From a virus, in IMG/VR virus record IMGVR_UViG_2929074307_000005: 64,000 nucleotides of DNA, one strand, 5' to 3'. The notes beneath the pieces were generated by a model, which made no database searches, was not told where the DNA came from, and worked only from the letters and a program-made list of their open reading frames with translations. Of the stretch, positions 5,059-41,602 are shown piece by piece. Within the stretch, counting starts at the first letter, position 1; every line of letters begins with the position of its first letter. A program made the translations under genes and the position numbers.

Positions 5059-7158
5059 TTAGGCGGCCTGCTTGGTTGGCAGGCTGTTATTGTTAGCGGT
5101 AGGCCATGCCTCCGGTGGGATTTTCATGTTTGTATTTTCGCGAATCCATTCTAGTCCGCGCTGGATGTGAGGTCGTCCATACTTGTCGGATGGCATACCT
5201 CTGTCTCTGTAGTCCTTTACGAACCCTTGGTCTTTCTTCCGGAGACGATTGGCGAATGCTCTAGCCGTTTCATGAACGACACAGTCTGGTGGAGCTACGT
5301 TAACTCTCACCCACTCGGCGCCTTCTTTTACTTTTGGGTAGCCATCAACGTGAGGCAGGCCACGCTGTATCCAGTGATAGATACTAGTAAGATGTTTGCC
5401 ATGGATTTTCGCAAATTCGGTTTTACTAATACATCCCTTTGGGACGCGTAATTTAGAACGCAGTGGGATATATGTGCTCATCCATTTAGTCGCGTCCTCC
5501 ACTGGGACGCCTTTAATTTTATCATACGGCATGCCGGCCCGGATAGGACCTTTCAGTTTATCTGGGTGGATGCCAATTCGTCTGGCAAAGTCAGACATAA
5601 TCTCATATCCTTCTGGAGGAAGCCCCCTCACATTTATGGCTACCCAATCCAATCCGTGCTGGATTACCACCGCCCGGTGTTTATCAATGGGCAGGCCTCG
5701 CCTTATCCAATCGGTAATTGTTCCGGAAGCCACCCCCACGCGTTTAGAGAACGCATGCTGAGATTCACTTCCTTGTTCAATTACCCTGACGTTACTAGCC
5801 ACCCACTCCAAGCCTTCTTTTTTTATTGGGTATTTATTAATGTTCGGCAGGCCATTTATTAACCACCTGTGAACATTTCCTGCACCGACCGCCTCCTTTG
5901 CCATTCTATTAAACTCGGCTGGCGTCACGCACCCCTCTGGCACCACCACCCTTAATTCTCGCAATTGCCCATCAAACTCGCCTATCTCTAGACCAGTTGG
6001 AAACTCATACCCGCACTTGCAGACTTTAGCCCGCTCGGCGCGAACTTCTTTACACTCCGGGCACCGACGCAAACGCCCGTCGCCCATCGATTGCAATCTT
6101 CTCTTGCGAGCGTCGCCATCGAGAGACCACTCAATAGGCGCATCGAACCAGCCGTGATCCATCCAGAGTCCAGCATGGTCGATCACTATCGCCATGTCTT
6201 TGCCTTCTGCTTTACGCAGCACGCGACCGATCATCTGCAAAAACAGTGCAAGTGATTTCGTGGGGCGCATGAGGATGACGGCGTCAATCGCCGGCAAATC
6301 GAAGCCTTCGGTAAAGACTTCGACGTTCGACAAGACCTTAATTGCTCCTGACGCCAGCGCGTTAACAGCACTGTCGCGTTCATCTGAATTTGTCGTGCCG
6401 TCTATGTGACGAGCTGGCACGCCGCTTTCATTGAACCGATCCACCAATGCCTTGCTCATATCTACGCTTGCTGCAAAGATCAGGGCGCGCTTGCCGCTAG
6501 CCTTTTCATTGTACTCTCGCACGGCATCGCCAATCAAAACTGGCGTGTTCATAACGCCTGCCAAATCCTTTTTGGCGTAATCGCCAGCTTGCATTCGTGC
6601 GGCAGACAAATCTGGATCAGACGGCGCGAAATACCTAAACTCTGAAAGATAACCTTCGTCGATCAGTTCGCGTGTCGATGGGCCAACCGTTAGCTCGTCA
6701 AACCAATTCGACAGGCCCTTACCGTCAAGGCGCTCCGGCGTAGCGGTGAGACCAATGTGCTTTGCATCGGAAAGTTGCTCACGGATCGCCGACCAAGACT
6801 TAGCTGCAAGGTGGTGGCACTCATCCCAAAAAACGGTCGAAGGGCGAGGCAAGTCATTTATACGACGAGCTAATGTGCCATGCGAAACGATCTGGACAGG
6901 CTTGCTGTAATCTGGTTCTGCGCGAGGCGACACTACGCCAAAATCAATGCCGGCTTTAGCAAATGAAGACGCAGCTTGGCGCTCGATTTCCTGACGGTGA
7001 CAAATAAACCAGACTGGGCCTTCCTGATCTGCGATCATAGAAGTCGCTACTTTGGTTTTACCGGCACCTGTTGGCATTTGAATTACAACGCTGCTTGATC
7101 TTTCCAACGCTTTGCGCGCGCTATCAATCACGTCAGCCTGATATGGGCGAAGTGTCAT
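5059..7158 (-). CDS. SF2 (DEAD/DEAH-type) helicase with a C4 zinc ribbon and five C-terminal ~45-aa tandem HTH-like repeats
   Basis: Walker A PTGAGKT and DECHH box. Zinc ribbon CPECK...CKCGYEFP. Repeats carry the consensus xFAxxxG....WIxRGLP..K.G...E.LEWV. Confidence 0.85.
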   Translation of the reverse strand: MTLRPYQADVIDSARKALERSSSVVIQMPTGAGKTKVATSMIADQEGPVWFICHRQEIERQAASSFAKAGIDFGVVSPRAEPDYSKPVQIVSHGTLARRINDLPRPSTVFWDECHHLAAKSWSAIREQLSDAKHIGLTATPERLDGKGLSNWFDELTVGPSTRELIDEGYLSEFRYFAPSDPDLSAARMQAGDYAKKDLAGVMNTPVLIGDAVREYNEKASGKRALIFAASVDMSKALVDRFNESGVPARHIDGTTNSDERDSAVNALASGAIKVLSNVEVFTEGFDLPAIDAVILMRPTKSLALFLQMIGRVLRKAEGKDMAIVIDHAGLWMDHGWFDAPIEWSLDGDARKRRLQSMGDGRLRRCPECKEVRAERAKVCKCGYEFPTGLEIGEFDGQLRELRVVVPEGCVTPAEFNRMAKEAVGAGNVHRWLINGLPNINKYPIKKEGLEWVASNVRVIEQGSESQHAFSKRVGVASGTITDWIRRGLPIDKHRAVVIQHGLDWVAINVRGLPPEGYEIMSDFARRIGIHPDKLKGPIRAGMPYDKIKGVPVEDATKWMSTYIPLRSKLRVPKGCISKTEFAKIHGKHLTSIYHWIQRGLPHVDGYPKVKEGAEWVRVNVAPPDCVVHETARAFANRLRKKDQGFVKDYRDRGMPSDKYGRPHIQRGLEWIRENTNMKIPPEAWPTANNNSLPTKQAA

Positions 7159-8216: not shown

Positions 8217-8894
8217 TTAGCGGGTGTTGTACTTGCCAACGACGCGGTGACAGACTGGCCAATCCGCGCGAAATTCCTTGAATTCCTTATGCGGGTTGTA
8301 CTGTTCCAGCATCCATTCGCGGTCATTGAAGCCGACGAGTCGCTTGATGATAGCTTCGTTCTCGTCCATTGCGCTTGTGTGATAAAGAATTACATCTTCA
8401 TCGCGAACCGGCGGCAAATTCGGGTTCACGAGTGCGGTTTCACCCGGACGATAGGCAGGAACCATTGATTCCCCGGACAATAGAAGGCCGTATCCACCTT
8501 TAACGCCCTGCAGTACTGCAGGCATTTTCATATAGCTGATTGGATCAAAGGTGATGATAACGTGTCCATCGCCGCCCTTCGCTGCAGCGTAAACGGGCAG
8601 GCCGCGCTCTTGGCTTACAAGCTGGTCGCCCGGGATTGGTGCAGGTGTAAAAGTATCAGCAATCGGCTTAGCTGATGACGCGGTCATTTCGCCATTGCCG
8701 AAGGCAAGCCAATCCTCATTAAGATCCAGCGCACGAGCAAGGCGGGCTACAAATTCAACACTGGCCCCGCGCTTCCCGCTTTCCAAAAGACTGATCGACG
8801 ACTTGTCTCGCCCAATAAGAGCGGCAAGGTCAGCCTGGCTCATTTCTTTAAGGTCACGCGCCAAACGAAGGCGCTGCGCGAAATCTTTGTCCAT
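8217..8894 (-). CDS. cI: CI-like prophage repressor (HTH_XRE N-domain plus S24 LexA-like peptidase C-domain)
   Basis: HTH MSQADLAALIGRDKSSISLLESGKR. S24 motifs GESMVP (catalytic Ser) and IIKRLVG (Lys). Start taken at MDKDF (8894). Confidence 0.85.
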   Translation of the reverse strand: MDKDFAQRLRLARDLKEMSQADLAALIGRDKSSISLLESGKRGASVEFVARLARALDLNEDWLAFGNGEMTASSAKPIADTFTPAPIPGDQLVSQERGLPVYAAAKGGDGHVIITFDPISYMKMPAVLQGVKGGYGLLLSGESMVPAYRPGETALVNPNLPPVRDEDVILYHTSAMDENEAIIKRLVGFNDREWMLEQYNPHKEFKEFRADWPVCHRVVGKYNTR

Positions 8895-8937
8895 GTTGCG
8901 CTTTTCGCATATTGTTGTGAAAATGTAACGTGCGAAA

Positions 8938-8957
8938 ATGTCACCACATGTTGACAT
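8938..8957. promoter_or_regulatory. Operator palindrome ATGTCAccacatgtTGACAT; TGTCA half-sites recur at ~8968 and ~8980
   Basis: Imperfect 20-bp palindrome overlapping the -35 of the rightward promoter, in the cI-cro intergenic region. Confidence 0.45.
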
Positions 8958-8979
8958 GGATGCGAATCTGTCATATATA
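8951..8979 (+). promoter_or_regulatory. Sigma70-type promoter TTGACA-17 bp-TATATA (PR-like, rightward)
   Basis: Consensus -35 and -10 hexamers with 17-bp spacing. Confidence 0.55.
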
Positions 8980-9428
8980 GGTGTCATCAACCGGCGCAAA
9001 AGACGCTGGACAGTTCGAAGGAGGGCCTACCTCATGATGCCAGAGAACATCCACCCAAGGATATCGGCACTCAATAGATAGAAGCCGCGCTAACGCGCAA
9101 TTGAAACTGAGGAGAGAGCAAATGACCAATTCCGCCGAAAGAAGCGAACCGGCTCTCGTTGAGGCGCCGCCGTAGGATCAATAGGGACGCTGCTGACCTT
9201 AATAGGGTCAGTGGTGCTTTCGGCGTTCCTGAATGTCGAGAGATTTATAGGACGGCGTTGTGAGCCGGCACCACCCGCTGCTCCGCCGTCCTCGTAATAC
9301 CCCGGCTTACACGAGGAGGGCTTGCGCCACTTCTACACCGGGGGTTCCTTCGCGAGTACCACCCCGCGCAGGACAACAGATGGCTTCACCAAAGTCATTT
9401 GTCAACCAACACCACACACGAGGAGATC

Positions 9429-9710
9429 ATGAAAGATTATGAAACCATAGAAGAAGTGCATCGCATGCACGAGGTGGGCGCCAACCCGACAGAGATCGGA
9501 AATGCGCTTAGCTTGCCCAGATCGACGGTAGCTTCAATTCTGCGTCGTCCTATTCCAAAACCTACAGCCGACCGCATTGTCGTGCGGTGCGTTTCGAACG
9601 GTGGATGGTCCACGGCCAATCACTGCGTCAGTTATATCGCAATGCCACGCATCCGTGCGCTGGAAGCCGCGAACGACAATTACGAACAGCCGGGCGCAAT
9701 CGCAGCCTGA
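9429..9710 (+). CDS. HTH DNA-binding early regulator (Cro/CII-like position)
   Basis: HTH EVGANPTEIGNALSLPRSTVASIL; preceded by caccacACACGAGGAGatcATG; C-terminal AANDN. Confidence 0.6.
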   Translation: MKDYETIEEVHRMHEVGANPTEIGNALSLPRSTVASILRRPIPKPTADRIVVRCVSNGGWSTANHCVSYIAMPRIRALEAANDNYEQPGAIAA

Positions 9711-12871: not shown

Positions 12872-13645
12872 ATGGCTATCAGCCTATCAAGCCTCAAATC
12901 GACGAAGAGAAACGACCGGCCAGTCATGCTTTTGTATGGCGTCGACGGTATCGGCAAGACCAGCCTTGCTGCTGAGTTTCCAGATCCGATCTATCTGGCC
13001 ACAGAAGGCGAGCGTCCGCCGTCTGATATTGAAATGGCAACGCCAGGCACGATTGAAAGCTTCGAAGACCTGCTCAACATCATCGGCGAACTGCTGACCG
13101 TTGAACATGATCGGCGCACCGTCATTATCGACAGCGTCGACGGATTAGAACCGCTTGTCTGGGCGGCAACCTGTGCCCGCTTAGGAGTAAGCAGTATTGA
13201 AGAGCCTGGGTTCGGGCGTGGTTACGTCGAGGCTGATAGCGAGTGGCACGAGCTGATGTCTGCAGTCTCAGCGCTCTCGCGTACTGGAATCCACGTCGTG
13301 ATGCTGGCCCACCCTGAGATTATTCGGTTCGACAGTCCAGTCACCGATCCATACTCACGCTACACGATAAAGTTGCATAAACGAGCCAATTCTCTCGTCC
13401 GGGAAAAAGTCGATATCGTGGCCTTCATGAATTATCGCGTGTCCATCAAGGAGAAAGAGGTCGCTCGCCAAACGAAGGTGGCGCACGCGGAAGGTGGCAA
13501 GGAGCGTAATATTCATCTGAACGAAGGTGCGGGCTATGTGGCGAAAAATCGCTTCTCTATGCCGGACTCGATCGTTTACCGAAAAGGTCAGGGCTACGCT
13601 GAGTTAGCAAAGTTCTGGGCTGAAGAAAAAGCTGAAGCTGCATAG
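12872..13645 (+). CDS. P-loop ATPase, Sak4/AAA_24-like (RecA-fold recombination-associated)
   Basis: Walker A GVDGIGKTSLA near the N-terminus; size and context (next to an SSB-like gene). Confidence 0.65.
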   Translation: MAISLSSLKSTKRNDRPVMLLYGVDGIGKTSLAAEFPDPIYLATEGERPPSDIEMATPGTIESFEDLLNIIGELLTVEHDRRTVIIDSVDGLEPLVWAATCARLGVSSIEEPGFGRGYVEADSEWHELMSAVSALSRTGIHVVMLAHPEIIRFDSPVTDPYSRYTIKLHKRANSLVREKVDIVAFMNYRVSIKEKEVARQTKVAHAEGGKERNIHLNEGAGYVAKNRFSMPDSIVYRKGQGYAELAKFWAEEKAEAA

Positions 13646-14311: not shown

Positions 14312-14881
14312 ATGGCATCACTAGGTAAGACCTACGTCGCAGGTGACGTAGATACCACGCAGAAAGACTTTGAAGACCTGCCTGCGGGTATCATGCAGTT
14401 CGAGATCGAAGCTACAGACGTTGTTGAAACCGGGCCCGAAGGCGCAAGAACCGGCGTCGGCCTCAAGTACACGGCGAACGTGCTCGCTCCTGAAGAAGTC
14501 TCAGGACGCAAGTTTTTTGGCTTCATCAATCTCGAGAACAAGAACCCTACGGCGCAAGAAATTGGTCAGCGCGAGTTTGCTTCGCTCCGCCGTGCCTGTG
14601 GGATTGACCAAATCGACGACACTGAAGAACTGCATTTCCGAACCTACACCGTGAAGCTTGGATTGGGTCGACCTTCCAAGGATGGGAAATATCCAGCGCG
14701 CATGGAAGTAAAGCGTTACTTCTTCCCCGATGAAGGCAACGTGCCAGAGCCGAGCATTGACGCTCAGCAGCCTGCGGCGGCAGCGCAGCGGCCTGCCAAC
14801 GACAACCGTCTTGCAGCGGCAAACAATAACAAGCCTGCGCAGCCTGCAAAAGCTGCGGGCAGCCGTCCCTGGTCTAAGTAA
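14312..14881 (+). CDS. SSB-like protein (DUF669-like), tentative
   Basis: Size, acidic/Pro/Ala-rich C-terminal tail with ANDN, and position after a Sak4-like ATPase. Confidence 0.45.
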   Translation: MASLGKTYVAGDVDTTQKDFEDLPAGIMQFEIEATDVVETGPEGARTGVGLKYTANVLAPEEVSGRKFFGFINLENKNPTAQEIGQREFASLRRACGIDQIDDTEELHFRTYTVKLGLGRPSKDGKYPARMEVKRYFFPDEGNVPEPSIDAQQPAAAAQRPANDNRLAAANNNKPAQPAKAAGSRPWSK

Positions 14882-15395: not shown

Positions 15396-15456
15396 CGCAC
15401 CAACCATGGCGCGGTCACCAGCCGCGCCTGACACCACCAACACGAGGAGAAAACCC

Positions 15457-16515
15457 ATGCGGGTAACGCTTGACCGAGCGCAGCTTGCGCACGCCTTGTC
15501 GACCGTGACAAAGGCAGTTGAGGCCAGAACGACAATTCCGATTCTTGGCAACGTGCTTTTGTCCGCGGACAAAGGACAGCTGAGCATCACTGGCACCAAT
15601 CTCGATCTGGAAATCAGCACCAGTTTGCCGGTTCTGGATAGCCAAGAAGGCACTGTCACAGTTGCGGGTAAGTTGCTTCTGGATATTGCCAAGCGCGCCA
15701 CGAGTGACGTTAATTTGGAAGCCGACGGCAATCATCTGGTCGTTAAATCTGGCAAGAGCCGTTTCAAACTCGACACGCTTCCAGCTGCGGACTTCCCGTC
15801 CTTCAATCGCGGAAGCTTCGACACGACGATCGACATCGATCTAGCCGCGCTTGTTGGTGCGGTTAACTTCGCTGTCAGTAACGAAGACACCCGCTATTAC
15901 CTGAACGGCGTATTTTTGGAAGCGAAGGACGGCCAGATTGTTGCCACGGCAACAGACGGACATCGCCTTGCATCGACACGCATTGAGCAGGAAGCCACGT
16001 TTGCACCCGTTATTCTGCCGAACAAGCTGCTGTCATTGCTGCCCACCGGAGTCGTGTCGGTTTCGCTGTCATCAAACAAGGTGATGGTCGAGGTCGGTTC
16101 GACTGTCATCGTGTCGAAACTCGTCGACGGCACTTATCCAGATTACGAGCGCGTTATTCCAAAGCCCTCGGAGCGTGTCGCTACTCTGTCGGCTAAAGCA
16201 CTGCGCGAAGCAGTCGGCCGCACATCAGTTATCGCCAGCGAGCGTGGGCGCGCTGTGCGCTTATCATTCGCTTCGGATGCTCTGACGTTGAACGTTGCTA
16301 ATCCAGATCGCGGCGATGCGACTGAGGAGATGGAAGTCAACTTCAGTAGCGAGCCGCTGACGATCGGTTTTAACGGCCAATATGTCACCGACCTCATGGC
16401 AGCGTTTGGCGCGGATGAAGTTACGATGTCGATGGCCGATTCCGGTTCGCCTGCGCTGATCACGTCGGCAAGTAGGCCGGGATACAGGTGCGTACTTATG
16501 CCGATGCGGGTTTAG
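15457..16515 (+). CDS. dnaN: DNA polymerase III beta subunit (sliding clamp), phage-encoded
   Basis: N-terminus MRVTLDRAQLAHALSTVTKAVEARTTIPILGNVLL; three-domain length; conserved initiation element upstream. Confidence 0.85.
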   Translation: MRVTLDRAQLAHALSTVTKAVEARTTIPILGNVLLSADKGQLSITGTNLDLEISTSLPVLDSQEGTVTVAGKLLLDIAKRATSDVNLEADGNHLVVKSGKSRFKLDTLPAADFPSFNRGSFDTTIDIDLAALVGAVNFAVSNEDTRYYLNGVFLEAKDGQIVATATDGHRLASTRIEQEATFAPVILPNKLLSLLPTGVVSVSLSSNKVMVEVGSTVIVSKLVDGTYPDYERVIPKPSERVATLSAKALREAVGRTSVIASERGRAVRLSFASDALTLNVANPDRGDATEEMEVNFSSEPLTIGFNGQYVTDLMAAFGADEVTMSMADSGSPALITSASRPGYRCVLMPMRV

Positions 16516-16523
16516 GTGGTGAA

Positions 16524-16748
16524 ATGAAGTTTAATTGCGGGCTAACACCAGAAGAGCTACGGGAAGAGAAACGCAAGAAATGGTGCGTGTGGCATAAATG
16601 GTTTGCTTGGCATCCTGTGCGCGTTGGTAGATCGGATTGCCGCTGGCTTGAAACAGTTGAGCGTAAAGCTCAGTATGTTTCTGTCGGTATAATTCTGGAA
16701 GCCAGACCCTATGAGTGCGAATACCGCGCTGTTGAGAAGCCATCGTAA
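16524..16748 (+). CDS. Hypothetical Trp/Cys-rich small protein
   Basis: Shine-Dalgarno sequence upstream; TAATG overlap with the next gene. Confidence 0.4.
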   Translation: MKFNCGLTPEELREEKRKKWCVWHKWFAWHPVRVGRSDCRWLETVERKAQYVSVGIILEARPYECEYRAVEKPS

Positions 16749-17674
16749 TGGCTCCACTCCCCAAACCACAATCGACAACCGTCGGCGCGATCTACGCTGC
16801 TTACGAGGCCCAGGCGAAATCCTGGGACTCGTGGGGCATCAGCGTGGGCGAGGCGGGCACCGAATGCGACAGGGCGCTTTGGTATGGTTTCCGATGGGCG
16901 TCAGCCCACGAAGTCCACAGCGGCCGACAGCTACGCTTGTTTGCAACGGGTAACATCGAAGAGGATCGGCTTGTCGCTGATCTCGAGCGCATCGGCGTCG
17001 ACGTGCACGGGCAGCAAGACAAGATCCGGCTTGTGTCAGGGTTCGTGCGCGGCAAATGCGATGGGAAGGCAATGAATGTGCCTGAAGCGTCGAAGACTGA
17101 GCATCTGCTAGAGTTTAAATCGAGCAATGCCAATGGCTTCGCGCTGATTGTTAAGGATGGTTGTCAGAAAGCAAAGCCGCTTCATTATGCGCAGTGCCAG
17201 CTTGGAATGCACGCCTTCGGTCTGACACGATGCCTTTATCTCGTCTCGTGCAAGGACAGCGACAGCCTTTATTCCGAGCGCATCGAATACGATCTGGAAT
17301 TCTGCCTGCGACTTGTGGCGCGCTGCGAACGCATCGTGTTTTCGGACATGCCTCCAAGCAGAATTAGCGAAAACCCGGAGTTCTTCGGATGCATGTTTTG
17401 CAAGCACAAAGCGGTCTGTCACCACGACGCACAGCCACGAGTGAACTGCCGAACCTGCCTTCATGCTCAGCCTGAAAGCGGCGGTGATTGCCATATCTCA
17501 TGCGCACGATGGGCAAAGCCTTTGTCGATCGACGAACAGCGTGACGGCTGCCCGGCGCACTTGTATCTGCCGGGCATGGTGAATGGCGAACAGATCGACG
17601 TCGATGAGGATGCCGAGACGATCACTTACAGGATGAAGTCGGGTGAGGTGTGGGTGGATGGGGCTAAGGGTTAG
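16748..17674 (+). CDS. Cas4-like PD-(D/E)XK exonuclease with an Fe-S cysteine cluster
   Basis: EFK (ExK) motif and QxxxY-like HYAQCQ; N-terminal Cys plus C-terminal CMFCKHKAVC (C-x2-C-x5-C). Confidence 0.7.
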   Translation: MAPLPKPQSTTVGAIYAAYEAQAKSWDSWGISVGEAGTECDRALWYGFRWASAHEVHSGRQLRLFATGNIEEDRLVADLERIGVDVHGQQDKIRLVSGFVRGKCDGKAMNVPEASKTEHLLEFKSSNANGFALIVKDGCQKAKPLHYAQCQLGMHAFGLTRCLYLVSCKDSDSLYSERIEYDLEFCLRLVARCERIVFSDMPPSRISENPEFFGCMFCKHKAVCHHDAQPRVNCRTCLHAQPESGGDCHISCARWAKPLSIDEQRDGCPAHLYLPGMVNGEQIDVDEDAETITYRMKSGEVWVDGAKG

Positions 17675-18300: not shown

Positions 18301-20052
18301 ATGCTAACCTTACGAAACTACCAGTCAGAAGCAATAGACGCCGTATTCGACTATTGGCAAGAGGAGGCAGGCAATCCGCTTGTTGATCTTGCGACGGGCT
18401 GCGGCAAGTCGTTGGTTATGGCGTCTTTGATCCAGCGCCTCGTTGAAGGCTGGCCTGATATGCGCGTGATGGTCGTCACCCACGTCGCGGAGCTGATCGA
18501 GCAGAATTATCTGGAATTGCTTGGCGTCTGGCCGTTTGCGCCTGCAGGCATCTATTCGGCTGGTTTGGGTCGTCGTGATGCGCGCAGTCAGATCGTTTTT
18601 GCCGGCATTCAGACTGTTCATAACAAGGCGCAGAAAATCGGTCACGTCGACGTCCTTATGGTCGACGAGTGCCACCTGATTCCGATCAACAGCAACACGA
18701 TGTATCGCAAGTTCATTGATGCGCTGCTCGAGATCAACCCGGACATGAAGATCCTCGGACTGACTGCCACACCTTATCGGCTCGACAGCGGTCGCTTGGA
18801 TGAGGGCGCGGATCGTCTGTTTGATCAGATCGTCTACACCTACGGAGTTGCTGACGGTATCCGCGACGGCTTCCTTGCTCCACTGACGAGCAAGCCGACA
18901 GCAACAGAATACGACGTTAAAGGCGTCGGGCGGCTTGGCGGCGACTACAAACAGCGCGCGCTGGAAGAGGCAATCAATCGAACAGACCTCAATGATGCTG
19001 TGGTTTCTGAGATCATAGCAAAGGGCGCTGATCGTCGCTCCTGGCTTTGTTTCTGCGCCGGTGTAAAGGCTGCGCTGGACGTGCGCGACGTCTTCAGATC
19101 TCGCGGCATTACATGCGAGGCCGTCACGGGGGATACTCCTAAGGAAGAACGCCGCCGCATCCTTGAGGACTTCAAAGCATACCGCATTCAATGTGTGACG
19201 AACAATTCAGTTCTTACGACAGGTTTCAATCATAAGGGTGTTGATTTAATTGCATTTATGCGCCCGACGCTGTCTTTGAGTTTGTACGTCCAAATGGCTG
19301 GGCGTGGCACTCGTCCGCTCTACAAGGCTGGTGCGCCACTGGATACGGTTGAGGAGCGGCTTACTGCTATCTCGGCAGGCCCTAAACGTAATTGCCTCGT
19401 CCTGGATTTCGCGAAGCTTGTCGATCGGCACGGCCCTGTCGACATGGTCGAGCCTAAAGCGCCAAGCGCTGGCAATGGGGAGCCGCCAATCAAGATCTGC
19501 CCGACAGTGCCAGACGACAATGGGGCGATTGGCTGCGGTGAGAAGGTGCACATCTCGCTGATGAAATGCCCATGTTGCGGATATGACTTCCCTCCTAACG
19601 AGGACGAGAAGCTAACCCGCCAAGCCGCTGACGTTCCGATTGTCAGCACCGCCGAAGCAGAATGGCGCAAGGTAACAGGCCGGACGTTTCACTTTCACGA
19701 AGGCAAGGGCGACAAGCCGCCTTCGGTCAAGTGCAGCTACATCGCAGGATATACGCAGATCAATGAATGGCTCTGCCCACAGCATAGCGGGTTTGCGCAA
19801 ACTAAGGCGCATCGATGGTGGACGCAGCATGGAGGCCAGCGGCCGTTTCCAAAGACGGTCATGGAGTGGCTTGAGCGCCAGCGCGAGTTGCTCACCACCG
19901 ACGAAATCAGCGTCGTGCCGAACGGCAAATACTGGAATGTGAAAGACGTGCGGGCTGGAGACGTAGCAGATAACGACAACGTTCCGGAGCCTGCGAATGA
20001 CAATGTGTCTGTTGGCCTTTCGGAGCTTCTAGACGACGAAATTCCATTTTGA
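18301..20052 (+). CDS. SF2 helicase with a zinc ribbon and a C-terminal SSB-tail-like DDEIPF
   Basis: GCGKS Walker A and DECH box. Zinc ribbon CPTVPDDNGAIGCGEK...CPCCGYDFP. C-terminus ...LLDDEIPF. Confidence 0.85.
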   Translation: MLTLRNYQSEAIDAVFDYWQEEAGNPLVDLATGCGKSLVMASLIQRLVEGWPDMRVMVVTHVAELIEQNYLELLGVWPFAPAGIYSAGLGRRDARSQIVFAGIQTVHNKAQKIGHVDVLMVDECHLIPINSNTMYRKFIDALLEINPDMKILGLTATPYRLDSGRLDEGADRLFDQIVYTYGVADGIRDGFLAPLTSKPTATEYDVKGVGRLGGDYKQRALEEAINRTDLNDAVVSEIIAKGADRRSWLCFCAGVKAALDVRDVFRSRGITCEAVTGDTPKEERRRILEDFKAYRIQCVTNNSVLTTGFNHKGVDLIAFMRPTLSLSLYVQMAGRGTRPLYKAGAPLDTVEERLTAISAGPKRNCLVLDFAKLVDRHGPVDMVEPKAPSAGNGEPPIKICPTVPDDNGAIGCGEKVHISLMKCPCCGYDFPPNEDEKLTRQAADVPIVSTAEAEWRKVTGRTFHFHEGKGDKPPSVKCSYIAGYTQINEWLCPQHSGFAQTKAHRWWTQHGGQRPFPKTVMEWLERQRELLTTDEISVVPNGKYWNVKDVRAGDVADNDNVPEPANDNVSVGLSELLDDEIPF

Positions 20053-20126: not shown

Positions 20127-20882
20127 ATGAAGAATATCTACGCTGATAACTACGATCCTTACACCGCCAGAGGCATGGGGGACAACAACCCGCCGACCTC
20201 CGCATATGAAGAGATCAAACAGGAAATCGAAGACCTGTACGGAGAAGCTAAACTGTTTGCGGACGGCGAAGCCATCGACAATCAGGCACTCGCCGACGCC
20301 GTGACCGAACTGCACGACAAGTTGCATGAGGCTGGAAAGCGCGCCGACGAGGTTCGTAAGGACGAGGCAAAACCGCACGACGATGCCAAGGCCGAAATCC
20401 AGACGCGCTACAACAAGCTGATCGGCAACACGAAGACTTCAGGCAAGGGCAAGGTCGTGCTTGGCAAGGAAGTGCTGCAAGGACTTCTTACCCCGTGGCG
20501 CAATAAGGTCGCAGCAGAAAAGGAAGCTGCGGCACGTGCAGCGCGTGAGGAAGCCGATCGCGTAATTCGCGAGGCGCAGGAAGCCATACAGGCGAGTAAT
20601 GGCAATCTGGAAGCGCGCGAGCAGGCCGAGGAACTGGTCAAGGAAGCGAAACAGGCTGACCGCTGGGCGAAGCGCGAAGACAAGGCGGCAACGACTGGCA
20701 CTGGCCTTCGCTCGGTATGGCACTGCGATCTGGTTGATGAAGGTGTCGCGCTTGATTGGGCGTATGGCCGCGCGCCGGAGCGTTTCAAAGCTGTTGTGCA
20801 GGCCATGGCCGAGGAGACGGTACGCGCCGGTATGCGTCAGGTGCCGGGATTCAATGTGCGCGAGGAAAGGGTGGCTAGGTGA
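20127..20882 (+). CDS. Hypothetical coiled-coil protein
   Basis: caaccACACGAGGAGaaaacATG upstream. Confidence 0.5.
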   Translation: MKNIYADNYDPYTARGMGDNNPPTSAYEEIKQEIEDLYGEAKLFADGEAIDNQALADAVTELHDKLHEAGKRADEVRKDEAKPHDDAKAEIQTRYNKLIGNTKTSGKGKVVLGKEVLQGLLTPWRNKVAAEKEAAARAAREEADRVIREAQEAIQASNGNLEAREQAEELVKEAKQADRWAKREDKAATTGTGLRSVWHCDLVDEGVALDWAYGRAPERFKAVVQAMAEETVRAGMRQVPGFNVREERVAR

Positions 20883-21366: not shown

Positions 21367-21939
21367 ATGCATGCACCGCTACCCAGCGGGCCTTTCGGCT
21401 GCGTCCTTGCGGACCCGCCATGGTCTTTCAGAACATACGGTAAAAAAGACGTCGCACCGGCACGAGGCCGTCAGCCTTACGGCGTGATGTCACTTGACGA
21501 TATCAAAGCACTGCCTGTCGAACAGGTATGTGCTCGCGACTGTTTGTTGTTCATGTGGACGGTTTCACATCTACAGGCTGCTGCGATCGAGGTGGCTGCC
21601 GCATGGGGCTTTAAGCCTGTTAGTGTTGCTTTTGTCTGGGACAAAGGCCGCATGGGCATGGGTTATTGGACACGGCAGGAAGTCGAAATCTGTCATCTGT
21701 TCAAGCGCGGTAAGCCTCGCCGTCTATCGAAAGGCGTGCGCTCCCTGATCAAGGCCCCGCGCCGCGAGCATTCCCGCAAGCCAGATGAGCAATACGGACG
21801 CATCGAGAGGCTGGTTGACGGTCCTTATCTCGAGCTCTTCGCTCGTCAGGCGTGGCCGGGCTGGTCTTCATGGGGCAACGAGTCTGATAAGTATGTTGCC
21901 GCAAACGATAATCAGGATTTGCTGGGGAGGGTGGCTTAA
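21367..21939 (+). CDS. N6-adenine DNA methyltransferase, MT-A70 family
   Basis: DPPW motif (CVLADPPWSF); conserved initiation element upstream. Confidence 0.8.
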   Translation: MHAPLPSGPFGCVLADPPWSFRTYGKKDVAPARGRQPYGVMSLDDIKALPVEQVCARDCLLFMWTVSHLQAAAIEVAAAWGFKPVSVAFVWDKGRMGMGYWTRQEVEICHLFKRGKPRRLSKGVRSLIKAPRREHSRKPDEQYGRIERLVDGPYLELFARQAWPGWSSWGNESDKYVAANDNQDLLGRVA

Positions 21940-22751
21940 TGGCGAAGCTCTCCAAGGCGCAGGCGAAAACACACACTCAAGCAGTTGCTATCCTTCAGCA
22001 AGAACAGTTGTCGGAAGATGATAAGGAATTCGTATATCGCAACTGGAACGAGGGCGCGAACCACGTAAACGGCGCAGCTGGTGCATTCTTCACCCCATTC
22101 GATATGGCGTTTGATTTTGCGATAGATGCTGGCGGCGGTCGCATTATTGACCTGTGTGCTGGGATTGGAATGCTCTCTTACGCCATTTGGCAGCGTAGCC
22201 GTTTCAACGACAATAGGCCGCAAATTACCTGCGTCGAGCGTAATGCCGATTATCTTGAGGTCGGGAAAAAGTTGCTGCCAGAAGCAGAATGGATTCACGC
22301 TGACGTATTTGATGTTCTCGATATGGGACTGGGGCACTTCGATACTGCGATTAGCAACCCTCCGTTCGGAAATATCAAGCGGACCAGAAACTCTCCGAGA
22401 TACAGCGGCAAGGATTTCGAATTCCATGTAATTGATATTGCGTCACATTTAGCGGACTACGGCACGTTCATCGTTCCCCAAATGTCGGCAGGCTTCAATT
22501 ATTCCGGGCGGAATAGCTATGAGCGTCAGACCAGTGGCAAAGCCGTTAAGTTTCAGGAGTTGACCGGTCTGCATTTCGATGCAGGCTGCGGCGTCGATAC
22601 TGCCTATTTCATCGATCAGTGGAAAGGCGTCTCTCCAATGTGCGAGATCGTTTGCGTTGAATTTACAGATGCGCCCGTCGTTGCCGCGAAAGCGCAACCG
22701 GCGAACGACAATGTGTCAGCTCAGCCCAGCCTCTTCGGTGACGCAGCATGA
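21939..22751 (+). CDS. N6-adenine DNA methyltransferase (NPPF class)
   Basis: SAM-binding IDLCAGIGMLS and catalytic ISNPPFG; C-terminus ...PANDNVSAQPSLFGDAA. Confidence 0.75.
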   Translation: MAKLSKAQAKTHTQAVAILQQEQLSEDDKEFVYRNWNEGANHVNGAAGAFFTPFDMAFDFAIDAGGGRIIDLCAGIGMLSYAIWQRSRFNDNRPQITCVERNADYLEVGKKLLPEAEWIHADVFDVLDMGLGHFDTAISNPPFGNIKRTRNSPRYSGKDFEFHVIDIASHLADYGTFIVPQMSAGFNYSGRNSYERQTSGKAVKFQELTGLHFDAGCGVDTAYFIDQWKGVSPMCEIVCVEFTDAPVVAAKAQPANDNVSAQPSLFGDAA

Positions 22752-23065
22752 GCCATCCAGATCAATGTCACGTCTGCTTCCGTCACGCCGTGGGACTCGG
22801 GGTGCAGGAGGGCAAGGAACCGATCCGCTGGCTATGCAAGGAGTGCGCAGACATTGCCGAGCATATCCGTTCCCGACGCAGGATGGACCCTTACGAACTG
22901 CGGGCCCTTGATACCGGCGTTGAGGCGGTTGGGGAGTTTTTGCAGTCCATACAGAAAACCGACCTCGCCGACTGCGATGAGCTTGAAGCGCGCATTCTGG
23001 TGAAAACAGCGTGGGAGGCTTGCGGGCGAGGGATGAGGGAAGCACTGAAGGAGGCGCCGTTTTGA
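22748..23065 (+). CDS. Hypothetical Cys-rich protein (CHVC...CKEC)
   Basis: ATGA overlap with the upstream gene. Confidence 0.45.
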   Translation: MSHPDQCHVCFRHAVGLGVQEGKEPIRWLCKECADIAEHIRSRRRMDPYELRALDTGVEAVGEFLQSIQKTDLADCDELEARILVKTAWEACGRGMREALKEAPF

Positions 23066-24093
23066 CCGCCTACTACAACGAATTCGATCCTAAAGCTGCC
23101 GCTTGGCTGCGCGAGCTGATCAAAGCAGGACACATAGCCCCGGGAGATGTTGATGAGCGTTCAATTGTCGATATTCGACCTGCCGACCTCGTCGGATACA
23201 CACAATGTCACTTCTTTGCCGGTATCGGCGTCTGGTCCTACGCATTGCGTCGAGCAGGATGGCACGACGACCGTCCTGTCTGGACAGGTTCATGTCCCTG
23301 CCAACCTTTCAGCGCGGCAGGCAAAGGAGATGGGTTTGCTGACGAGCGGCACCTATGGCCGCACTTCCACTGGCTTATTCAAAACTGCCGACCTGCAGTC
23401 GTCTTTGGCGAGCAAGTTGCGAGCAAGGACGGACTCGGCTGGCTCGACCTTGTACAAGCTGACCTGGAAGGATCGGGCTACGCCAGCGGGGCGGTCGATA
23501 CCTGCGCTGCGGGCTTCGGTGCGCCGCACATCAGACAGCGCCTCTATTGGGTGGCCCACGCCGACGACACGCGATCACAAGGACGGAGGGGAGTGTCAGA
23601 ACGTTCCGCTGAACGCATTGTTGGGGCGAGTGGCGTGGCTGACTGGATGGCCGACGGCGAGATGTGGGGGCAATCCGGAGGGGTACGGGAACGCCGATCG
23701 TCAGAATGGACCGAGAGGAAGGTTGGAGGACACCGTGCCACTGGCAGGTTGGCCGACAACGACAACGACGGACGCATTGCGCCACCCATCACCGAACTTC
23801 AAAACAAAGAACGTCACACTGAACCACGCAGCAGCAATGGCAGGCCCGGCCCGACTAACGGCCACTGGTCAGATGCTGACTGGCTCTTTTGCCGGGATGG
23901 AAAGTGGCGGCCAGTTGAACCCGGCACATTCCCGCTGGCTCATGGGTCTGCCGCCAGAGTGGGACGATTGCGCGGTTACGGCAATGCAATCAATGCCGAG
24001 CAAGCGCAAGCGTTCATCGAAGCGTATCGCGAAACCGAATTAGTTGCAGCCAACGACAATCACTGCAGCAATACGCTGTGGCCCTCCGCATAG
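23062..24093 (+). CDS. DNA cytosine-5 methyltransferase
   Basis: Motif I FFAGIGV, motif [11 protein letters not shown], and a QxRxR-like HIRQRLY. Start uncertain (TTG 23062). Confidence 0.7.
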
Positions 24094-24271: not shown

Positions 24272-26452
24272 ATGCATACTAACATCACGTCCGTTGTCGA
24301 AGAAGACCCAATGCTCGATGTTGCGTTGTCGTATCAGGCACAAAACTGGCCCGTTTTCCCATGCCGCCACCGCGACGAGGAGATTATCGACCCGCAAACC
24401 GGCGAAATTGAAATCCTTGCCACCAAGACCCCGCTGACCAGCAACGGGTTCCGTGGCGCGACGCTGAATGAGCGCATCGTCCGTGAATACTGGCGCCGCA
24501 ACCCTTACGCAATGATTGGCGTGCCAACAGGTGCGCCTATAGGTGCATGGGTTCTAGATATCGACCCGAAACACGGCGGCGACGAAACGCTTGCCGCGCT
24601 TGAGGCCGCACACGGCGCGCTACCTGCTACGCTAACCGCAGAAACCACGAGCGGCGGACGGCACTATTTCTTTCGTCATCGGCAGGGCGTTCGCAACCGT
24701 GGCGCGCTTGGCTCCGGCGTCGACGTGCGCGGTGACGGTGGTTATGTCATTGCGGCCGGCAGCGTGCCCGAGGTTGGCCTGCCTTACCGTTGGATATCTG
24801 AGCAAGAGCCGATCGACGCGCCAGACTGGTTGCTGGAACTGGTGCTGCCGCGCTCATATGAGAGCACATACACCGCAGCACCGTCTGTTAGCGGCAAGAT
24901 CAATGACCGCTATGTCGAGCGTGCAGTTCAATCTGAGCTGGACGATCTTGCGCTTGAACCGATGGGTAATCGCAACAACCGGCTGAACGACGCCGCGTTT
25001 CGTTTGGGCACGTTCGTTGGAGCCGGAGCTCTGGCTGAATCCGAAGCACGCGCTCTGCTACAAGACGTGGCACGAGGTTGGGGCCGGGACTGGCCGCGCT
25101 GTGTAAAGACGATCGACAACGGACTTGCTGCCGGTGCCCGCAGCCCGCGTAGTGTGCCACAGAACGACAACGATAACACGCGTCTGGTCGATATCAGCCG
25201 TATGATTGCCAATGGACTGGCGAAAGCGGAGGCGCGCACCGACGTGGTCGCAGAGCCAGTTTCGGATTTCGATTCATCTATAAACCAACAGGAACAAACT
25301 ACTGAAAATAAACGCGCAATCATTGCTACGCCATTCGTATGGAAAGACCCGGCGACGCTTCCACGGCGCGAGTTTGCATTCGGTAAGCACTTCATTCGCA
25401 AGTATGTGTCGGTGACGGTCGCGCCGGGCGGTCTCGGCAAAACTGCGAACAGCATCGTCGAAGCATTGGCCATGGCGTCGGGTAAAGCGCTCAATGGCAC
25501 GAAGCCGCCGAAGCGTCTTAAGGTCTGGTTGTTCAATGCCGAAGATCCGCGCGACGAGCTTGAGCGCCGCATTATGGCCGCTTGTATTCATTTCAATCTG
25601 AAGCCAGCAGATATCGACGGGCATCTGTTTCTAGACACAGGCCGCGAGCAGGAATTGGTCATTGCGATCGATGACAAGAAAGGCGTGCGGATTCAGGAAC
25701 CCGTCGTTGAAGCTGTTGTTGAAACGATCTCGGAGCTTGGCATTGACGTGATGATTGTTGACCCGTTCGTGTCGACGCACCAAGTCAATGAAAACGACAA
25801 CGGCGCAATCGACAAGGTGGCCAAGCTTTGGGCGCAGGTAGCGGATCGAACAAACTGCTCAATCGATATCGTGCATCATCTGCGAAAGGTGAGCGATCGT
25901 GAAGCAACTGTTGAAGACGCTCGCGGTGCGGTTTCGCTGATCGGTGCGGCACGTTCGGTGCGCGTGCTTAACCGTATGTCGGAAGCGCAAGCCAGTGAAG
26001 CTGGCCTTACACATGAAGCGCGGTTTTCATATTTCAGCGTGGTCTATGGCAAGTCGAACTTGTCAGCACTGTCGCACAAGGCTGACTGGCGCAAGCTGGA
26101 AAGTGTCGCGCTGGGGAACGGGCAGGGCCTGACCAAGCCTCAAGACCATGCGCCGGTCGTGACGTCATGGGCATGGCCGACAAGTGAGGAAGTTGCTGAG
26201 ACATTGACCGAGGACGAACGCGACGCAATCCGGGGTGTTGTGAACGGCGGCATGTATAAGCCGGCACCGCAGGCCAAGGATTGGGTAGGGCGCGCCGTTG
26301 CGTATGCACTGCAGCTGGACGTCGACGAAGAGACGGAAAAGAAGCGGGTGGGCATGATCACCAAAGCGCTGTTTGCAGAGGGCTTCCTAATGAAGGTGGA
26401 AGACCGGGACCCTGTTCAACGCAGGGCCACGACGTTTGTTCGAGCGATGTGA
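24272..26452 (+). CDS. Bifunctional primase-polymerase (PrimPol N-domain) fused to a RecA-like/AAA_25 ATPase domain
   Basis: PrimPol motifs DIDPKHGG and GYVIAAGS; P-loop APGGLGKT; phage P4-alpha-like organisation. Confidence 0.8.
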   Translation: MHTNITSVVEEDPMLDVALSYQAQNWPVFPCRHRDEEIIDPQTGEIEILATKTPLTSNGFRGATLNERIVREYWRRNPYAMIGVPTGAPIGAWVLDIDPKHGGDETLAALEAAHGALPATLTAETTSGGRHYFFRHRQGVRNRGALGSGVDVRGDGGYVIAAGSVPEVGLPYRWISEQEPIDAPDWLLELVLPRSYESTYTAAPSVSGKINDRYVERAVQSELDDLALEPMGNRNNRLNDAAFRLGTFVGAGALAESEARALLQDVARGWGRDWPRCVKTIDNGLAAGARSPRSVPQNDNDNTRLVDISRMIANGLAKAEARTDVVAEPVSDFDSSINQQEQTTENKRAIIATPFVWKDPATLPRREFAFGKHFIRKYVSVTVAPGGLGKTANSIVEALAMASGKALNGTKPPKRLKVWLFNAEDPRDELERRIMAACIHFNLKPADIDGHLFLDTGREQELVIAIDDKKGVRIQEPVVEAVVETISELGIDVMIVDPFVSTHQVNENDNGAIDKVAKLWAQVADRTNCSIDIVHHLRKVSDREATVEDARGAVSLIGAARSVRVLNRMSEAQASEAGLTHEARFSYFSVVYGKSNLSALSHKADWRKLESVALGNGQGLTKPQDHAPVVTSWAWPTSEEVAETLTEDERDAIRGVVNGGMYKPAPQAKDWVGRAVAYALQLDVDEETEKKRVGMITKALFAEGFLMKVEDRDPVQRRATTFVRAM

Positions 26453-28367: not shown

Positions 28368-28733
28368 ATGAGCAAAGCAGTAACAAACAAAATCATCCCT
28401 GAAGGCTTCTATTGGTCGAAGTTGTGCGGAATGGCTTTAAGAAAGAGACAGCTAGGATCACCTGTATCTGTAGAACGGCACACCATGGCCCCAAGTTCTT
28501 TGTTGAGGCGGGCGCTTGCAGAAATATCGTCTGTCGAGAACGACGCGAATGAAGCCAAAAAGCTGACATCAGAAGACGCTTCCCGTTACGGTTCTGCATT
28601 GTGGTCTGGCAAACTGAAAGAATATTTCTCGTGGAGGGCGGGGCAGGGCTTGTCGTGGTGGCATGAACAAGAGCGCCTTTATCCTTCCGCAGCCAATGAC
28701 AATTCGGCAGCAGCAGTCAGGAAGGCAGCATGA
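28368..28733 (+). CDS. Hypothetical protein (C-terminal AANDNSAAAV)
   Basis: ccaaACACGAGGAGaattttATG upstream. Confidence 0.45.
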   Translation: MSKAVTNKIIPEGFYWSKLCGMALRKRQLGSPVSVERHTMAPSSLLRRALAEISSVENDANEAKKLTSEDASRYGSALWSGKLKEYFSWRAGQGLSWWHEQERLYPSAANDNSAAAVRKAA

Positions 28734-29638
28734 GCAGGCACAAGTCCCTTGCCGGAGCCATGACTGCTTTGATGGCTTACAAAAATCGGCCTGAAAGCGA
28801 AATCATACCCGTTTCAACAAACTGGAATGTGGTGCCTGAGAATAGCAACGAACCTGAAGTGATATCGCAGATGCATACTGAGCGGCGCATTCAGATACTT
28901 CCGACCGTTGAGGAAATCATGCGGAATGTCGGCAGTGAGGACATCGAGCGCAATGATCTAGGCCAGATAGTTCGTATAGGTCGCCTCAAATTCAGCGATG
29001 GCACGCAAGTTGAGGCAGGAAATAAATATGGACCCGGTGGCGAGGTAATCGCCACCAAACACCGAATGCCAGCGGGTGCAATGCTTGGATGCCGTGAACA
29101 GGAAAGCAGAGCGCTAGGAGGAGATGAAAATCCATCCGAAGTTGCAGCAAGTAATAACTACTTTCTAGCTGCGTTCGAATTGAAGCGCCGAGAGCGTATT
29201 CCATCAGGGAAAAAGACAAAACGAACTTATCAAACGCATGACCAAGCGAAAGAAGACCTCGCAAAAGCATACGCAAACACGCCAGCGCTGCCGCCAGTAA
29301 CAAGATGCCGGCCTGGCCTACCCAATGCAGGCAACCGCATTGGAGACAGCTTTCTTGGGATGAAGAAAACGACAACTGGTGAATCGGGATCAATGGGGTG
29401 GCAAGACGTTTCTAGTGCCCTGGTAGATCGCGAGATATGGGCCCAAGCCATTGAGGCGCTATCGGAGAGGGATAGAACGGCAATGGATACGGCGGCACAT
29501 GGGAAGGTGAGGAACTACGAAGGGTTAGGGATATCTTTGGGCTTCAAGACAGAATATTCGAGACGCAAGGGCGGACGGAAGGCCTTAACGGCGGCCAATG
29601 ATAATCTTCAAGAAAACATAAAAAGATTTTCTGCCTAG
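28730..29638 (+). CDS. Hypothetical protein (C-terminal AANDNLQENI)
   Basis: ATGA overlap with the upstream gene. Confidence 0.5.
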   Translation: MSRHKSLAGAMTALMAYKNRPESEIIPVSTNWNVVPENSNEPEVISQMHTERRIQILPTVEEIMRNVGSEDIERNDLGQIVRIGRLKFSDGTQVEAGNKYGPGGEVIATKHRMPAGAMLGCREQESRALGGDENPSEVAASNNYFLAAFELKRRERIPSGKKTKRTYQTHDQAKEDLAKAYANTPALPPVTRCRPGLPNAGNRIGDSFLGMKKTTTGESGSMGWQDVSSALVDREIWAQAIEALSERDRTAMDTAAHGKVRNYEGLGISLGFKTEYSRRKGGRKALTAANDNLQENIKRFSA

Positions 29639-29970: not shown

Positions 29971-30046
29971 GCCCTTGTAGCTCAGTTGGGAGAGCGGCTG
30001 CCTTGTAAGCAGATGGTCCGGGGTTCTATTCCTCGCGAGGGCACCA
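29971..30046 (+). tRNA. tRNA-Thr (anticodon UGU), 76 nt with encoded CCA
   Basis: Cloverleaf folded by hand: acceptor GCCCTTG/CGAGGGC, D-arm GCTC..GAGC, anticodon loop cTTGTaa, T-arm CGGGG/CCTCG; one G-A mismatch in the anticodon stem. Confidence 0.65.
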
Positions 30047-30053
30047 ATTCAAT

Positions 30054-30129
30054 GCGGAGTGGAGAAGTGGTCATCTCGTCTGGTTCATACCCAGAAGACC
30101 GTCGGTTCGAATCCGACCTACCGCAACCA
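30054..30129 (+). tRNA. tRNA-Met-like (anticodon CAU) with an imperfect acceptor stem; possible degenerate phage tRNA
   Basis: Perfect T-arm GTCGG-TTCGAAT-CCGAC and anticodon arm TCTGG-ttCATac-CCAGA. Initiator-like 3' end CCGCAACCA. Acceptor stem has two mismatches. Confidence 0.45.
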
Positions 30130-41450: not shown

Positions 41451-41602
41451 TCTTTACTCTCGCAACTCTGTACTACCGGTCTACCCCCTGTACGGAATCG
41501 TCCGATTGCGTACAGGGGCAAAACACCCTGTCCACAAATTATCTTGACATGGTTTCGAACAGTGGAGATATTTCGGACATCCTATTCGGACGAAATGAGC
41601 CC
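41451..41602. promoter_or_regulatory. Res site and divergent promoters between tnpA and tnpR
   Basis: Inverted repeats CTGTACGG...CGTACAGG in the divergent intergenic region. Confidence 0.5.

Follow-up and report, generated by a model that had tools for sequence, protein, structure and literature searches.

A RadD-like phage helicase that ends in a host-type SSB tip and carries SsrA-like NDN motifs in its tail

Why would a phage helicase end in the C-terminal peptide of a bacterial SSB (single-stranded DNA-binding protein)? This question is raised by IMG/VR virus record IMGVR_UViG_2929074307_000005, a 64,000-nucleotide stretch of viral DNA (hereafter the window), in which a RadD-family superfamily 2 (SF2) helicase gene occupies 18301..20052 on the plus strand, stop codon included, and encodes 583 residues. 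A preliminary description of this DNA had named an SF2 helicase here and had likened its last six residues, DDEIPF, to the SSB tip. Both statements hold: the protein matches Pfam ResIII (1e-23), Helicase_C (1e-13) and, at residues 411-432, the UPF0547 zinc ribbon, together with PHROG_16 'DNA helicase' (1.1e-94), and DDEIPF equals the DDDIPF of E. coli SSB at 5 of 6 positions. When the residue before these six is included, the last seven residues of the helicase, LDDEIPF, are an exact copy of a host-type SSB tip.

The tip closes a 31-residue acidic tail (residues 553-583, 19957..20049, plus strand; GDVADNDNVPEPANDNVSVGLSELLDDEIPF) with nine acidic residues, no basic ones and a net charge of approximately -9. 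The C-terminus of the helicase reads ...KDVRAG-DVADNDNVPEPANDNVSVGLSELLDDEIPF and is followed by TGA at 20050-20052; Phe583 directly precedes this stop codon, leaving its α-carboxylate free. The interval originally singled out, 19960-20052, runs from Asp554 through the stop. Within the tail, L-D-D-E-I-P-F spans residues 577-583 (20029..20049, plus strand), and helicase peptides that end in the tip and include Pro582 and Phe583 read VGLSELLDDEIPF and SVGLSELLDDEIPF. Two NDN motifs precede it on the same strand, A-D-N-D-N at residues 556-560 (19966..19980) and P-A-N-D-N at residues 564-568, the latter containing ANDN (19993..20004), which is the same as the opening of Rhizobiales transfer-messenger RNA (tmRNA, or SsrA) tags. 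Where the preliminary description had counted two copies of ANDN, two NDN motifs are indeed present but only the second is an exact ANDN. In an AlphaFold2 model built on a 109-sequence alignment, the tail is predicted to be disordered, with a predicted local distance difference test (pLDDT) score of approximately 48-55, a short helix at residues 573-577 as its sole secondary structure and no docking onto the body, whose mean pLDDT is 86.8.

How closely does the tip follow the SSBs of alpha-proteobacteria? LDDEIPF is the SSB C7 motif in 5795 of 18,841 alpha-proteobacterial assemblies (2026 paper, PMC13490951), and the SSB ends that we read from sequence are close or identical to it, with ...RDLDDDIPF in S. 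meliloti, ...DMDDDIPF in R. leguminosarum and ...ALDDEIPF in a Mesorhizobium plasmid SSB. As in the C-terminal segment of bacterial SSB (SSB-Ct), the helicase peptide lies at the extreme C-terminus behind a disordered, variable linker, joins acidic residues to I-P-F-COOH, and has a hydrophobic residue at position -7, the alpha-proteobacterial form being matched at 7/7 positions. The proteins that bear the peptide differ, however, as SSB is a tetramer that binds single-stranded DNA (ssDNA) through an OB-fold (for oligonucleotide/oligosaccharide binding), a domain to which the phage tip is not attached, whereas the helicase is a monomer-type, RadD-like SF2 enzyme. The linkers differ as well, comprising 24 residues with SsrA-like NDN motifs in the helicase and Gly/Gln/Pro-rich repeats in SSB.

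Is the tip maintained among relatives of the helicase? Conservation of IPF in orthologues had been set beforehand as a test of its significance, and we followed it in three sets: the best 120 database homologues, a 109-sequence alignment (60-97% identity) and 80 IMG/VR relatives. A tip-like terminal tripeptide is present in 115 of the best 120 homologues (IPF in 88, VPF in 19, and eight single variants such as IPY and IPW), and approximately 105 of the 109 aligned homologues end in [LM]-D-D-[DE]-[IV]-P-F, with column counts of 103 for Phe, 106 for Pro, 106 for Ile or Val and 96 for Asp at position -5. The approximately 25 residues before the tip cannot be aligned among the same 109 sequences. 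Viral contigs give a similar picture, with the tip present in 64 of the 80 IMG/VR relatives. Across 46 distinct tip-coding DNA sequences, all four Pro, three Ile, two Phe and six Leu codons are used; because codons turn over synonymously beside a variable linker, selection acts on the tip peptide. The refuting outcome named in the preliminary description, an IPF tip that orthologues fail to keep, is thus not what these sets show.

The best 120 homologues come from Rhizobiales genomes (Aureimonas, Sinorhizobium, Mesorhizobium, Agrobacterium and Rhizobium among them) and metagenomes, and several have been named 'RadD' by the Joint Genome Institute (JGI). At the protein level, the nearest phage relatives of the helicase are those of Rhizobium phage RHph_TM3_3_14B (72%), Sinorhizobium phages AP-16-3 and NV1.1.1 (55-57%) and Rhizobium phage 16-3 (44%), followed at approximately 41% by E. 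coli Seuratvirus, Pseudomonas, Stenotrophomonas, Synechococcus and Alteromonas phages. Megablast against phage records returned no nucleotide match for the helicase gene, so phage relatives are detectable only at the protein level. The element is a 16-3-like temperate phage or prophage with a recombination/replication module. Further afield, the helicase of E. coli phage CAjan, which belongs to the same Sak4-DUF669-Cas4-helicase module, ends in ...VEDPDYVPF, so that a helicase with a PF tip is seen again in a distant lineage.

Tip and NDN motifs are separable, since relatives carry either one alone. Tails with the tip and without NDN are found at seven loci (L162, L165, L167, L187, L188, L195 and L198), and helicase tails that lack the tip and combine NDN with a terminal AA are found at two (L184, ...ANDNEGRAAA; L201, ...ANDNQPAEESKAA). 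The tail thus reads as a flexible cassette of two separable, apparently host-derived short linear motifs, the SSB tip and NDN.

What might such a cassette do? We think it probable that the tip works as a docking peptide of the SSB type. In our proposal, it would act in trans as a portable docking peptide, its terminal Phe and carboxylate inserting into the hydrophobic, basic-rimmed pockets of SSB-interacting proteins; candidate partners are the host clamp-loader chi subunit, PriA, RecQ/RecG-type helicases, exonucleases and primase, and/or the Sak4-like annealing protein of the phage itself. The helicase would bring these partners to phage ssDNA, whose expected coat is a DUF669-type SSB that lacks this tip. 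The two NDN motifs, which copy the start of the SsrA tag, would bind dimeric SspB and so lead to turnover or remodelling of the helicase by ClpXP. We infer all of these binding events and their consequences, and to recruitment in trans as a whole we give an even chance.

Could the tail instead act in cis, on the enzyme that carries it? An acidic tail might fold onto the basic DNA grooves of its own body or onto an SSB-tip site inherited from RadD, either keeping the enzyme inactive until the tail is displaced by ssDNA or a partner, or stimulating its ATPase as the SSB tip stimulates that of RadD. The tails of SSB, T7 gp2.5 and T4 gp32 fold back on their own DNA-binding sites, which favors such an arrangement. 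Residues 1-552 (18301..19956, plus strand) comprise two RecA-like domains, a Cys4 zinc ribbon and a RadD-like C-terminal domain; C400, C412, C423 and C426 are invariant in the family alignment, and the final strands of the AlphaFold2 model lie at residues 533-541 and 544-552. The closest solved protein is E. coli RadD (YejH; phmmer versus 6jde, E = 2.9e-51, residues 2-338), and the fold resembles that of RadD 7r7j across the full length (Foldseek, approximately 610 columns, E = 3.5e-34, TM 0.52). The helicase is therefore a RadD family member by its motor core, zinc ribbon and C-terminal domain, and since its body is a RadD-like SF2 helicase, it is a mimic of the SSB tip and not an SSB. Six close homologues (P0003, P0048, P0076, P0096, P0109 and P0119) are approximately 350 residues longer than the helicase (929-959 residues), contain the precomputed intein/homing-endonuclease Pfam domains PF05203, PF05204 and PF14528, and still end in ...IPF.

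In E. coli RadD, three arginines of RecA-like domain 1 (Arg21, Arg49 and Arg145) have been mapped as the site for the SSB tip, which stimulates the ATPase approximately 3-fold (PMC10238739). A second mapping places SSB binding in the RadD C-terminal domain and DNA binding in basic grooves there and in the zinc finger (PMC9821108), and it is to the C-terminal domain that the strongly acidic phage tail is directly joined. With Q20, E49 and K150 at the equivalent positions, the phage protein lacks the basic residues that correspond to Arg21 and Arg49 and thus does not show the arginine frame of the RadD-type SSB-tip pocket. Among the 109 homologues, position 20 is Ser, Arg, Gln or Ala and position 49 is mostly Glu or Asp, and the pocket-equivalent residues are alike in tip-bearing and tip-less relatives, with no co-variation with the tip. 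Docking in cis into a RadD-type pocket is left unsupported by these unconserved, non-co-varying arginines and by the AlphaFold2 model, in which an alignment of 109 sequences leaves the tail undocked. The same observations give no support to the self-regulation through an OB-fold that had been suggested earlier, and no OB-fold was found in the helicase, the RadD-like fold spanning its whole length. Moreover, a purely electrostatic fold-back needs no exact host heptapeptide. We therefore regard autoregulation in cis as rather unlikely. From the residues at these positions, the helicase seems to have lost the reader pocket of domain 1 and to display the peptide instead, which would invert the polarity of the interaction known from E. 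coli RadD, a protein that reads the SSB tip and does not carry it.

If the tip is displayed to other proteins, what does the surrounding module offer it? A Sak4-like ssDNA annealing protein (12872..13645, plus strand), 76% identical to p077 of phage 16-3 and matching PHROG_124 (7.8e-43), is, by analogy with phage HK620, a candidate partner. It is followed on the same strand by a DUF669-type SSB-like protein (14312..14881), which matches Pfam DUF669 at E = 8e-4, just below the curated cut-off, and PHROG_6015 'single strand DNA binding protein' at 1.2e-15; by a DnaN beta sliding clamp (15406..16515; Pfam DNA_pol3_beta domains 1-3); and, upstream of the helicase, by a Cas4-domain exonuclease (16748..17674; PHROG_1990, 4.1e-96). 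A second exonuclease lies downstream of the helicase at 20127-20882, and a PrimPol-AAA_25 primase/helicase at 24272-26452. The order Sak4-SSB-exonuclease-helicase is common to phages 16-3, RHph_TM3_3_14B and CAjan. No DNA polymerase gene was found among the window open reading frames (ORFs) scanned, only the beta clamp and PrimPol-AAA_25.

The window also lacks a significant match to a canonical SSB (tblastn with four SSBs), and the best local matches of SSB tails in it are to the helicase tail itself. In the window, as in RHph_TM3_3_14B and 16-3, the helicase is the sole ORF with an acidic-[IV]PF end. The DUF669 protein has no acidic IPF tip and ends in ...RPWSK, with ANDN and ANNN in its tail (14795-14881); every DUF669 neighbor recovered (L131, 10138-11025; L133-L212) ends in ...[RK]PW.., and that of CAjan in ...PPWQQ. 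This PW end looks like a C-terminal tip of its own kind that has not been described. In one relative, L178, the DUF669 protein has ...RPWGQRSNTVDDDIPF and hence both tips, so that the PF tip occurs on helicase and SSB. A scheme in which each module has exactly one PF tip, shifted from its DUF669 SSB onto its helicase, is ruled out by L178 and by phages with tail-less helicases whose DUF669 proteins have no PF tip.

Two phage systems indicate what a tail of this kind can do. Both T7 tails, those of gp4 and gp2.5, end in Phe, and the helicase studied here shares with the former a 31-residue acidic tail (9 acidic, 0 basic residues) and a terminal Phe on a phage helicase. The flexible, acidic, SSB-like C-terminal tails of the T7 gp4 helicase-primase tether a replisome partner, the T7 polymerase, and their removal cuts processivity threefold (PMC8472574). 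The T7 enzyme differs in being a hexamer of superfamily 4 (SF4) whose tail resembles that of its own phage SSB, gp2.5, and binds the phage polymerase, whereas here an SF2 RadD-like helicase copies the tail of host SSB, the phage SSB ends in ...RPWSK and no polymerase was found among the window ORFs scanned. In phage HK620, Sak4 likewise stands beside a DUF669 protein, which is a proven SSB and whose terminal hexapeptide, NDYPPF, is required for the recruitment of Sak4 to SSB-coated ssDNA and for the stimulation of annealing (PMC5928155). The PDYVPF end of the CAjan helicase is similar to this C-terminal ...PF tip. HK620 carries the tip on its SSB; in the present phage group it is on the helicase and the SSB ends in ...RPWSK, L178 having both.

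Is the SSB tip found on other phage proteins? We sampled 120 IMG/VR ORFs that end exactly in DDEIPF (L213-L332) and sorted them by a crude BLAST test, which assigned 28 to canonical SSB, three to RadD-like helicases and two to DUF669, and left 87 unclassified. The unclassified set includes an archaeo-eukaryotic primase (AEP) with PriCT_1 on three contigs (L277, L302 and L305) and an AAA_5/CbbQ-like ATPase on three more (L238, L281 and L310), and many of its short ORFs probably encode SSBs of divergent sequence. Phage proteins other than SSB may commonly carry a portable SSB tip.

Taken with the DUF669 SSB that lacks the tip, the occurrence of DDEIPF on other replication proteins and the recruiting tails of T7 and HK620 mean that the evidence fits recruitment at least as well as competition. 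Competition would mean that the tip fills the SSB pockets of host primase, RecQ, PriA and ExoI as a decoy, so that these partners are withheld from host SSB and host replication, repair or nuclease attack on phage DNA is weakened. A tip identical to that of host SSB should bind the same pockets, and the tail is predicted by AlphaFold2 to be exposed and disordered, both of which favor a decoy. Host SSB, however, is an abundant tetramer with four tips, and a monomer displaying a single one would compete poorly with it unless produced in very high quantity. In addition, the enzyme that bears the tip itself works on DNA, in a module whose SSB lacks this tip, an arrangement that recruitment fits better, and the known phage tails of this kind recruit. 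We accordingly give little credence to the helicase as a decoy.

What of the NDN motifs that share the tail with the tip? The preliminary description underrated them: they form a second host-mimicking motif that is found throughout the phage proteome. The tmRNA tag of Caulobacter is AANDNFAEEFAVAA (PMC1233412) and that of A. tumefaciens is ANDNNAKEYALAA (PMC12493166), and ARAGORN predicts the tags ANDNNAKEYALAA, ANDNNAKGYALAA, ANDNNAQGYALAA, ANDNKAQGYALAA and ANDNYAQDVALAA on genome loci of Rhizobium, Agrobacterium, Neorhizobium, Ciceribacter, Brucella and Pannonibacter. ANDN is thus the opening of Rhizobiales and other alpha-proteobacterial tags. In the 109 helicase homologues, NDN occurs 154 times in the last 70 residues and 7 times in the bodies; 60 of the 109 have at least two copies, usually preceded by AA or PA. 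Across the window proteome, ANDN occurs 10 times where 0.18 are expected (2000 shuffles, maximum 3), and NDN 18 times where 1.7 are expected. A repeat that acts at the DNA level, such as a promoter, terminator or recombination boundary, is ruled out: all six-frame matches are in frame with long ORFs and their wobble positions vary synonymously (GCN AAY GAY AAY), which identifies ANDN as a peptide motif and not a DNA motif.

Seven further window proteins end in ANDN, 8-12 residues and a terminal alanine, usually as AA. Two have tails of ...ANDNRRPFKRRAA (4773-5006, minus strand) and ...ANDNYEQPGAIAA (9399-9710, plus strand); the other five, all on the plus strand, have ...ANDNQDLLGRVA (21367-21939), ...ANDNVSAQPSLFGDAA on a methyltransferase (21939-22751), an ANDN-type tail with terminal alanine (23011-24093), ...ANDNSAAAVRKAA (28368-28733) and ...ANDNLQENIKRFSA (28730-29638). 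A variant with ANNN, ...ANNNSLPTKQAA, is found on a second, paralogous RadD-like SF2 helicase of 699 residues (5059-7158, minus strand; ResIII, Helicase_C and zinc ribbon), which ends in ...TANNNSLPTKQAA and has no SSB tip. This second helicase also has a weak Cox/MerR-like helix-turn-helix match near residues 570-620.

When the window is pooled with two reference phages (L001 and L002) and 80 viral loci (L133-L212), 170 distinct ANDN tails lie within 20 residues of a stop codon; 126 of them end in A, 100 in AA and 24 in PF, the last being helicases. Their length peaks at 12-13 residues, compared with 13 for the native tag, and they keep its two functional ends, the adaptor-binding start and the ClpX-binding ...AA, while the spacer varies. 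Carriers include methyltransferases, the second RadD-like helicase and small unknown proteins, and in relatives HNH endonucleases, an exonuclease and the portal protein. Judged by their sequences, the ANDN...AA tails look like genome-encoded SspB/ClpXP degrons. Precedent exists in mycobacteriophage, where an integrase and a repressor bear genome-encoded ssrA-like tags (PMC9635641); there two regulators are tagged, whereas this phage group has at least 10 such proteins per phage, with some of the motifs N-terminal or in linkers. NDN lies in apparent interdomain linkers of PrimPol-AAA_25 (residues 298-302, 25163-25177, ...VPQNDNDNTRL...) and of a C5 methyltransferase (residue 250, 23758-23766), and in relatives also in the N-terminal tails of Xis, MazG-like and HD-hydrolase proteins; because of these positions, not every NDN copy is a C-terminal degron.

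Of the 86 proteins predicted in the window, 13 have an AA end and 22 an A end, ANDN-less ones such as Sak4 (...EEKAEAA) included; these ends may be C-terminal degrons of the ClpX type, or they may only reflect stop/start overlaps of the form GC(N)-ATGA. The tail of the methyltransferase at 21939-22751, ...PANDNVSAQPSLFGDAA, also holds QPSLF (22722-22736). Its orthologue in RHph_TM3_3_14B has QLSLF, the canonical beta-clamp-binding pentapeptide, and many relatives have ...QADLFG.AA or ...QASLFGDAA, which suggests that the methyltransferase may be anchored on the sliding clamp of phage or host by way of a motif set within its degron-like tail.

Is the helicase tail, then, a proteolysis signal and nothing else, in which NDN binds SspB, ...IPF serves as the protease-engagement end and the likeness to SSB is irrelevant? 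In the E. coli tag the N-terminal part binds SspB and the C-terminal ALAA binds ClpX; an SspB site without ALAA is bound by SspB and not degraded, whereas a double SspB site without ALAA is degraded if SspB is present (PMC8512704). The helicase has the adaptor-binding half twice (ADNDN and PANDN) and ends in ...IPF, not in the ...[LV]AA of the ClpX-binding end, which the ...ANDNSAAAVRKAA and ...ANDNYEQPGAIAA proteins do possess. A degron-only tail draws support from its doubled SspB site, which in E. coli still permits degradation without ALAA; from the near-constant pairing of NDN with a C-terminal ...AA elsewhere in these phages; and from L184 and L201, where the helicase has traded its tip for a tag-like tail. 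Set against this are the tip-only tails without NDN and the tip of the CAjan helicase, which show that the tip is selected on its own. In the examined 25.7-kb replication-module stretch of CAjan, no ANDE- or NDN-type tails were found, so that mimicry of the host tag is not supported in the E. coli relatives; since this stretch lacks tag-like tails and yet has the PF tip, tag mimicry is specific to the alpha-proteobacterial group and the PF tip is not. Identity with the SSB tip at 7/7 positions and its recurrence on primases and ATPases would be left unexplained. To our knowledge, moreover, acidic-IPF is not a known ClpX C-motif. A purely proteolytic tail is therefore improbable. Chance or neutral resemblance, for which only the shortness of the motif speaks, is effectively refuted by more than 100 homologues that conserve the tip at 60-70% identity, the unalignable linker and synonymous codon turnover, and is hardly credible.

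Several observations weigh against recruitment in trans. No tail is present on the homologues in Pseudomonas, Stenotrophomonas, Synechococcus and Alteromonas phages or at loci L202-L212, where the DUF669 proteins likewise end without a PF tip; given such tail-less homologues, the tip is a dispensable accessory module and no requirement of the core. The tail might fold back onto the C-terminal domain or the DNA grooves, which is not predicted by AlphaFold2 and yet possible because tip binding has been mapped to the C-terminal domain of RadD. Recruitment and competition are indistinguishable by sequence. For the NDN half of the proposal, the alpha-proteobacterial SspB, which reportedly reads NDN, was not detected by tblastn with E. 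coli SspB as query. No Pfam match to a phage-encoded SspB-like hub was obtained among the 30 window ORFs scanned.

Other features of the window lie outside this argument. It encodes a CI-like repressor (8217-8999), an HNH endonuclease and three DNA methyltransferases. A tRNA-Thr (TGT; 29971-30046, plus strand) and a tRNA-Met (CAT; 30053-30129, plus strand) adjoin each other between the replication module and the packaging genes. The structural-gene region is broken up by a 991-residue ORF (38475-41450, minus strand) and a neighboring 219-residue ORF (41549-42208, plus strand), which might be a mobile element.

What does the locus add to what is known? The SSB tip, RadD, T7-type tails, the HK620 SSB-Sak4 tail and ssrA-like tags have each been described already. 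Within the literature accessible to us, which was limited, we found no phage helicase described as bearing an SSB tip, no RadD-like phage helicase described as having the exact host tip and lacking the RadD pocket arginines, and no account of a phage group with at least 10 SsrA-tag look-alike proteins per genome.

The SSB C-terminal tip is a central address label of bacterial genome maintenance. An exact host label on the helicase, combined with a phage SSB that lacks it, would give a polymerase-less temperate phage a route to draw host replication and repair factors, or its own annealase, onto its DNA. Portable SSB tips may be a general viral strategy that annotation pipelines have overlooked. 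It is also conceivable, though very improbable, that the tail is a bifunctional adaptor in which the tip captures host SSB-interacting proteins, the NDN pair holds dimeric SspB and the helicase hands those proteins (or itself, once engaged) to ClpXP as a natural phage 'degrader'; if true, such an adaptor would bridge the SSB interactome and the tmRNA proteolysis pathway. The phage thus seems to connect its helicase to two host protein networks through short copied peptides. The phage group may, in addition, time or limit much of its early proteome by encoding copies of the SsrA tag in its own genome; with look-alikes on at least 10 proteins per phage, host proteolysis would be used across the proteome, beyond the two tagged regulators of the mycobacteriophage precedent.

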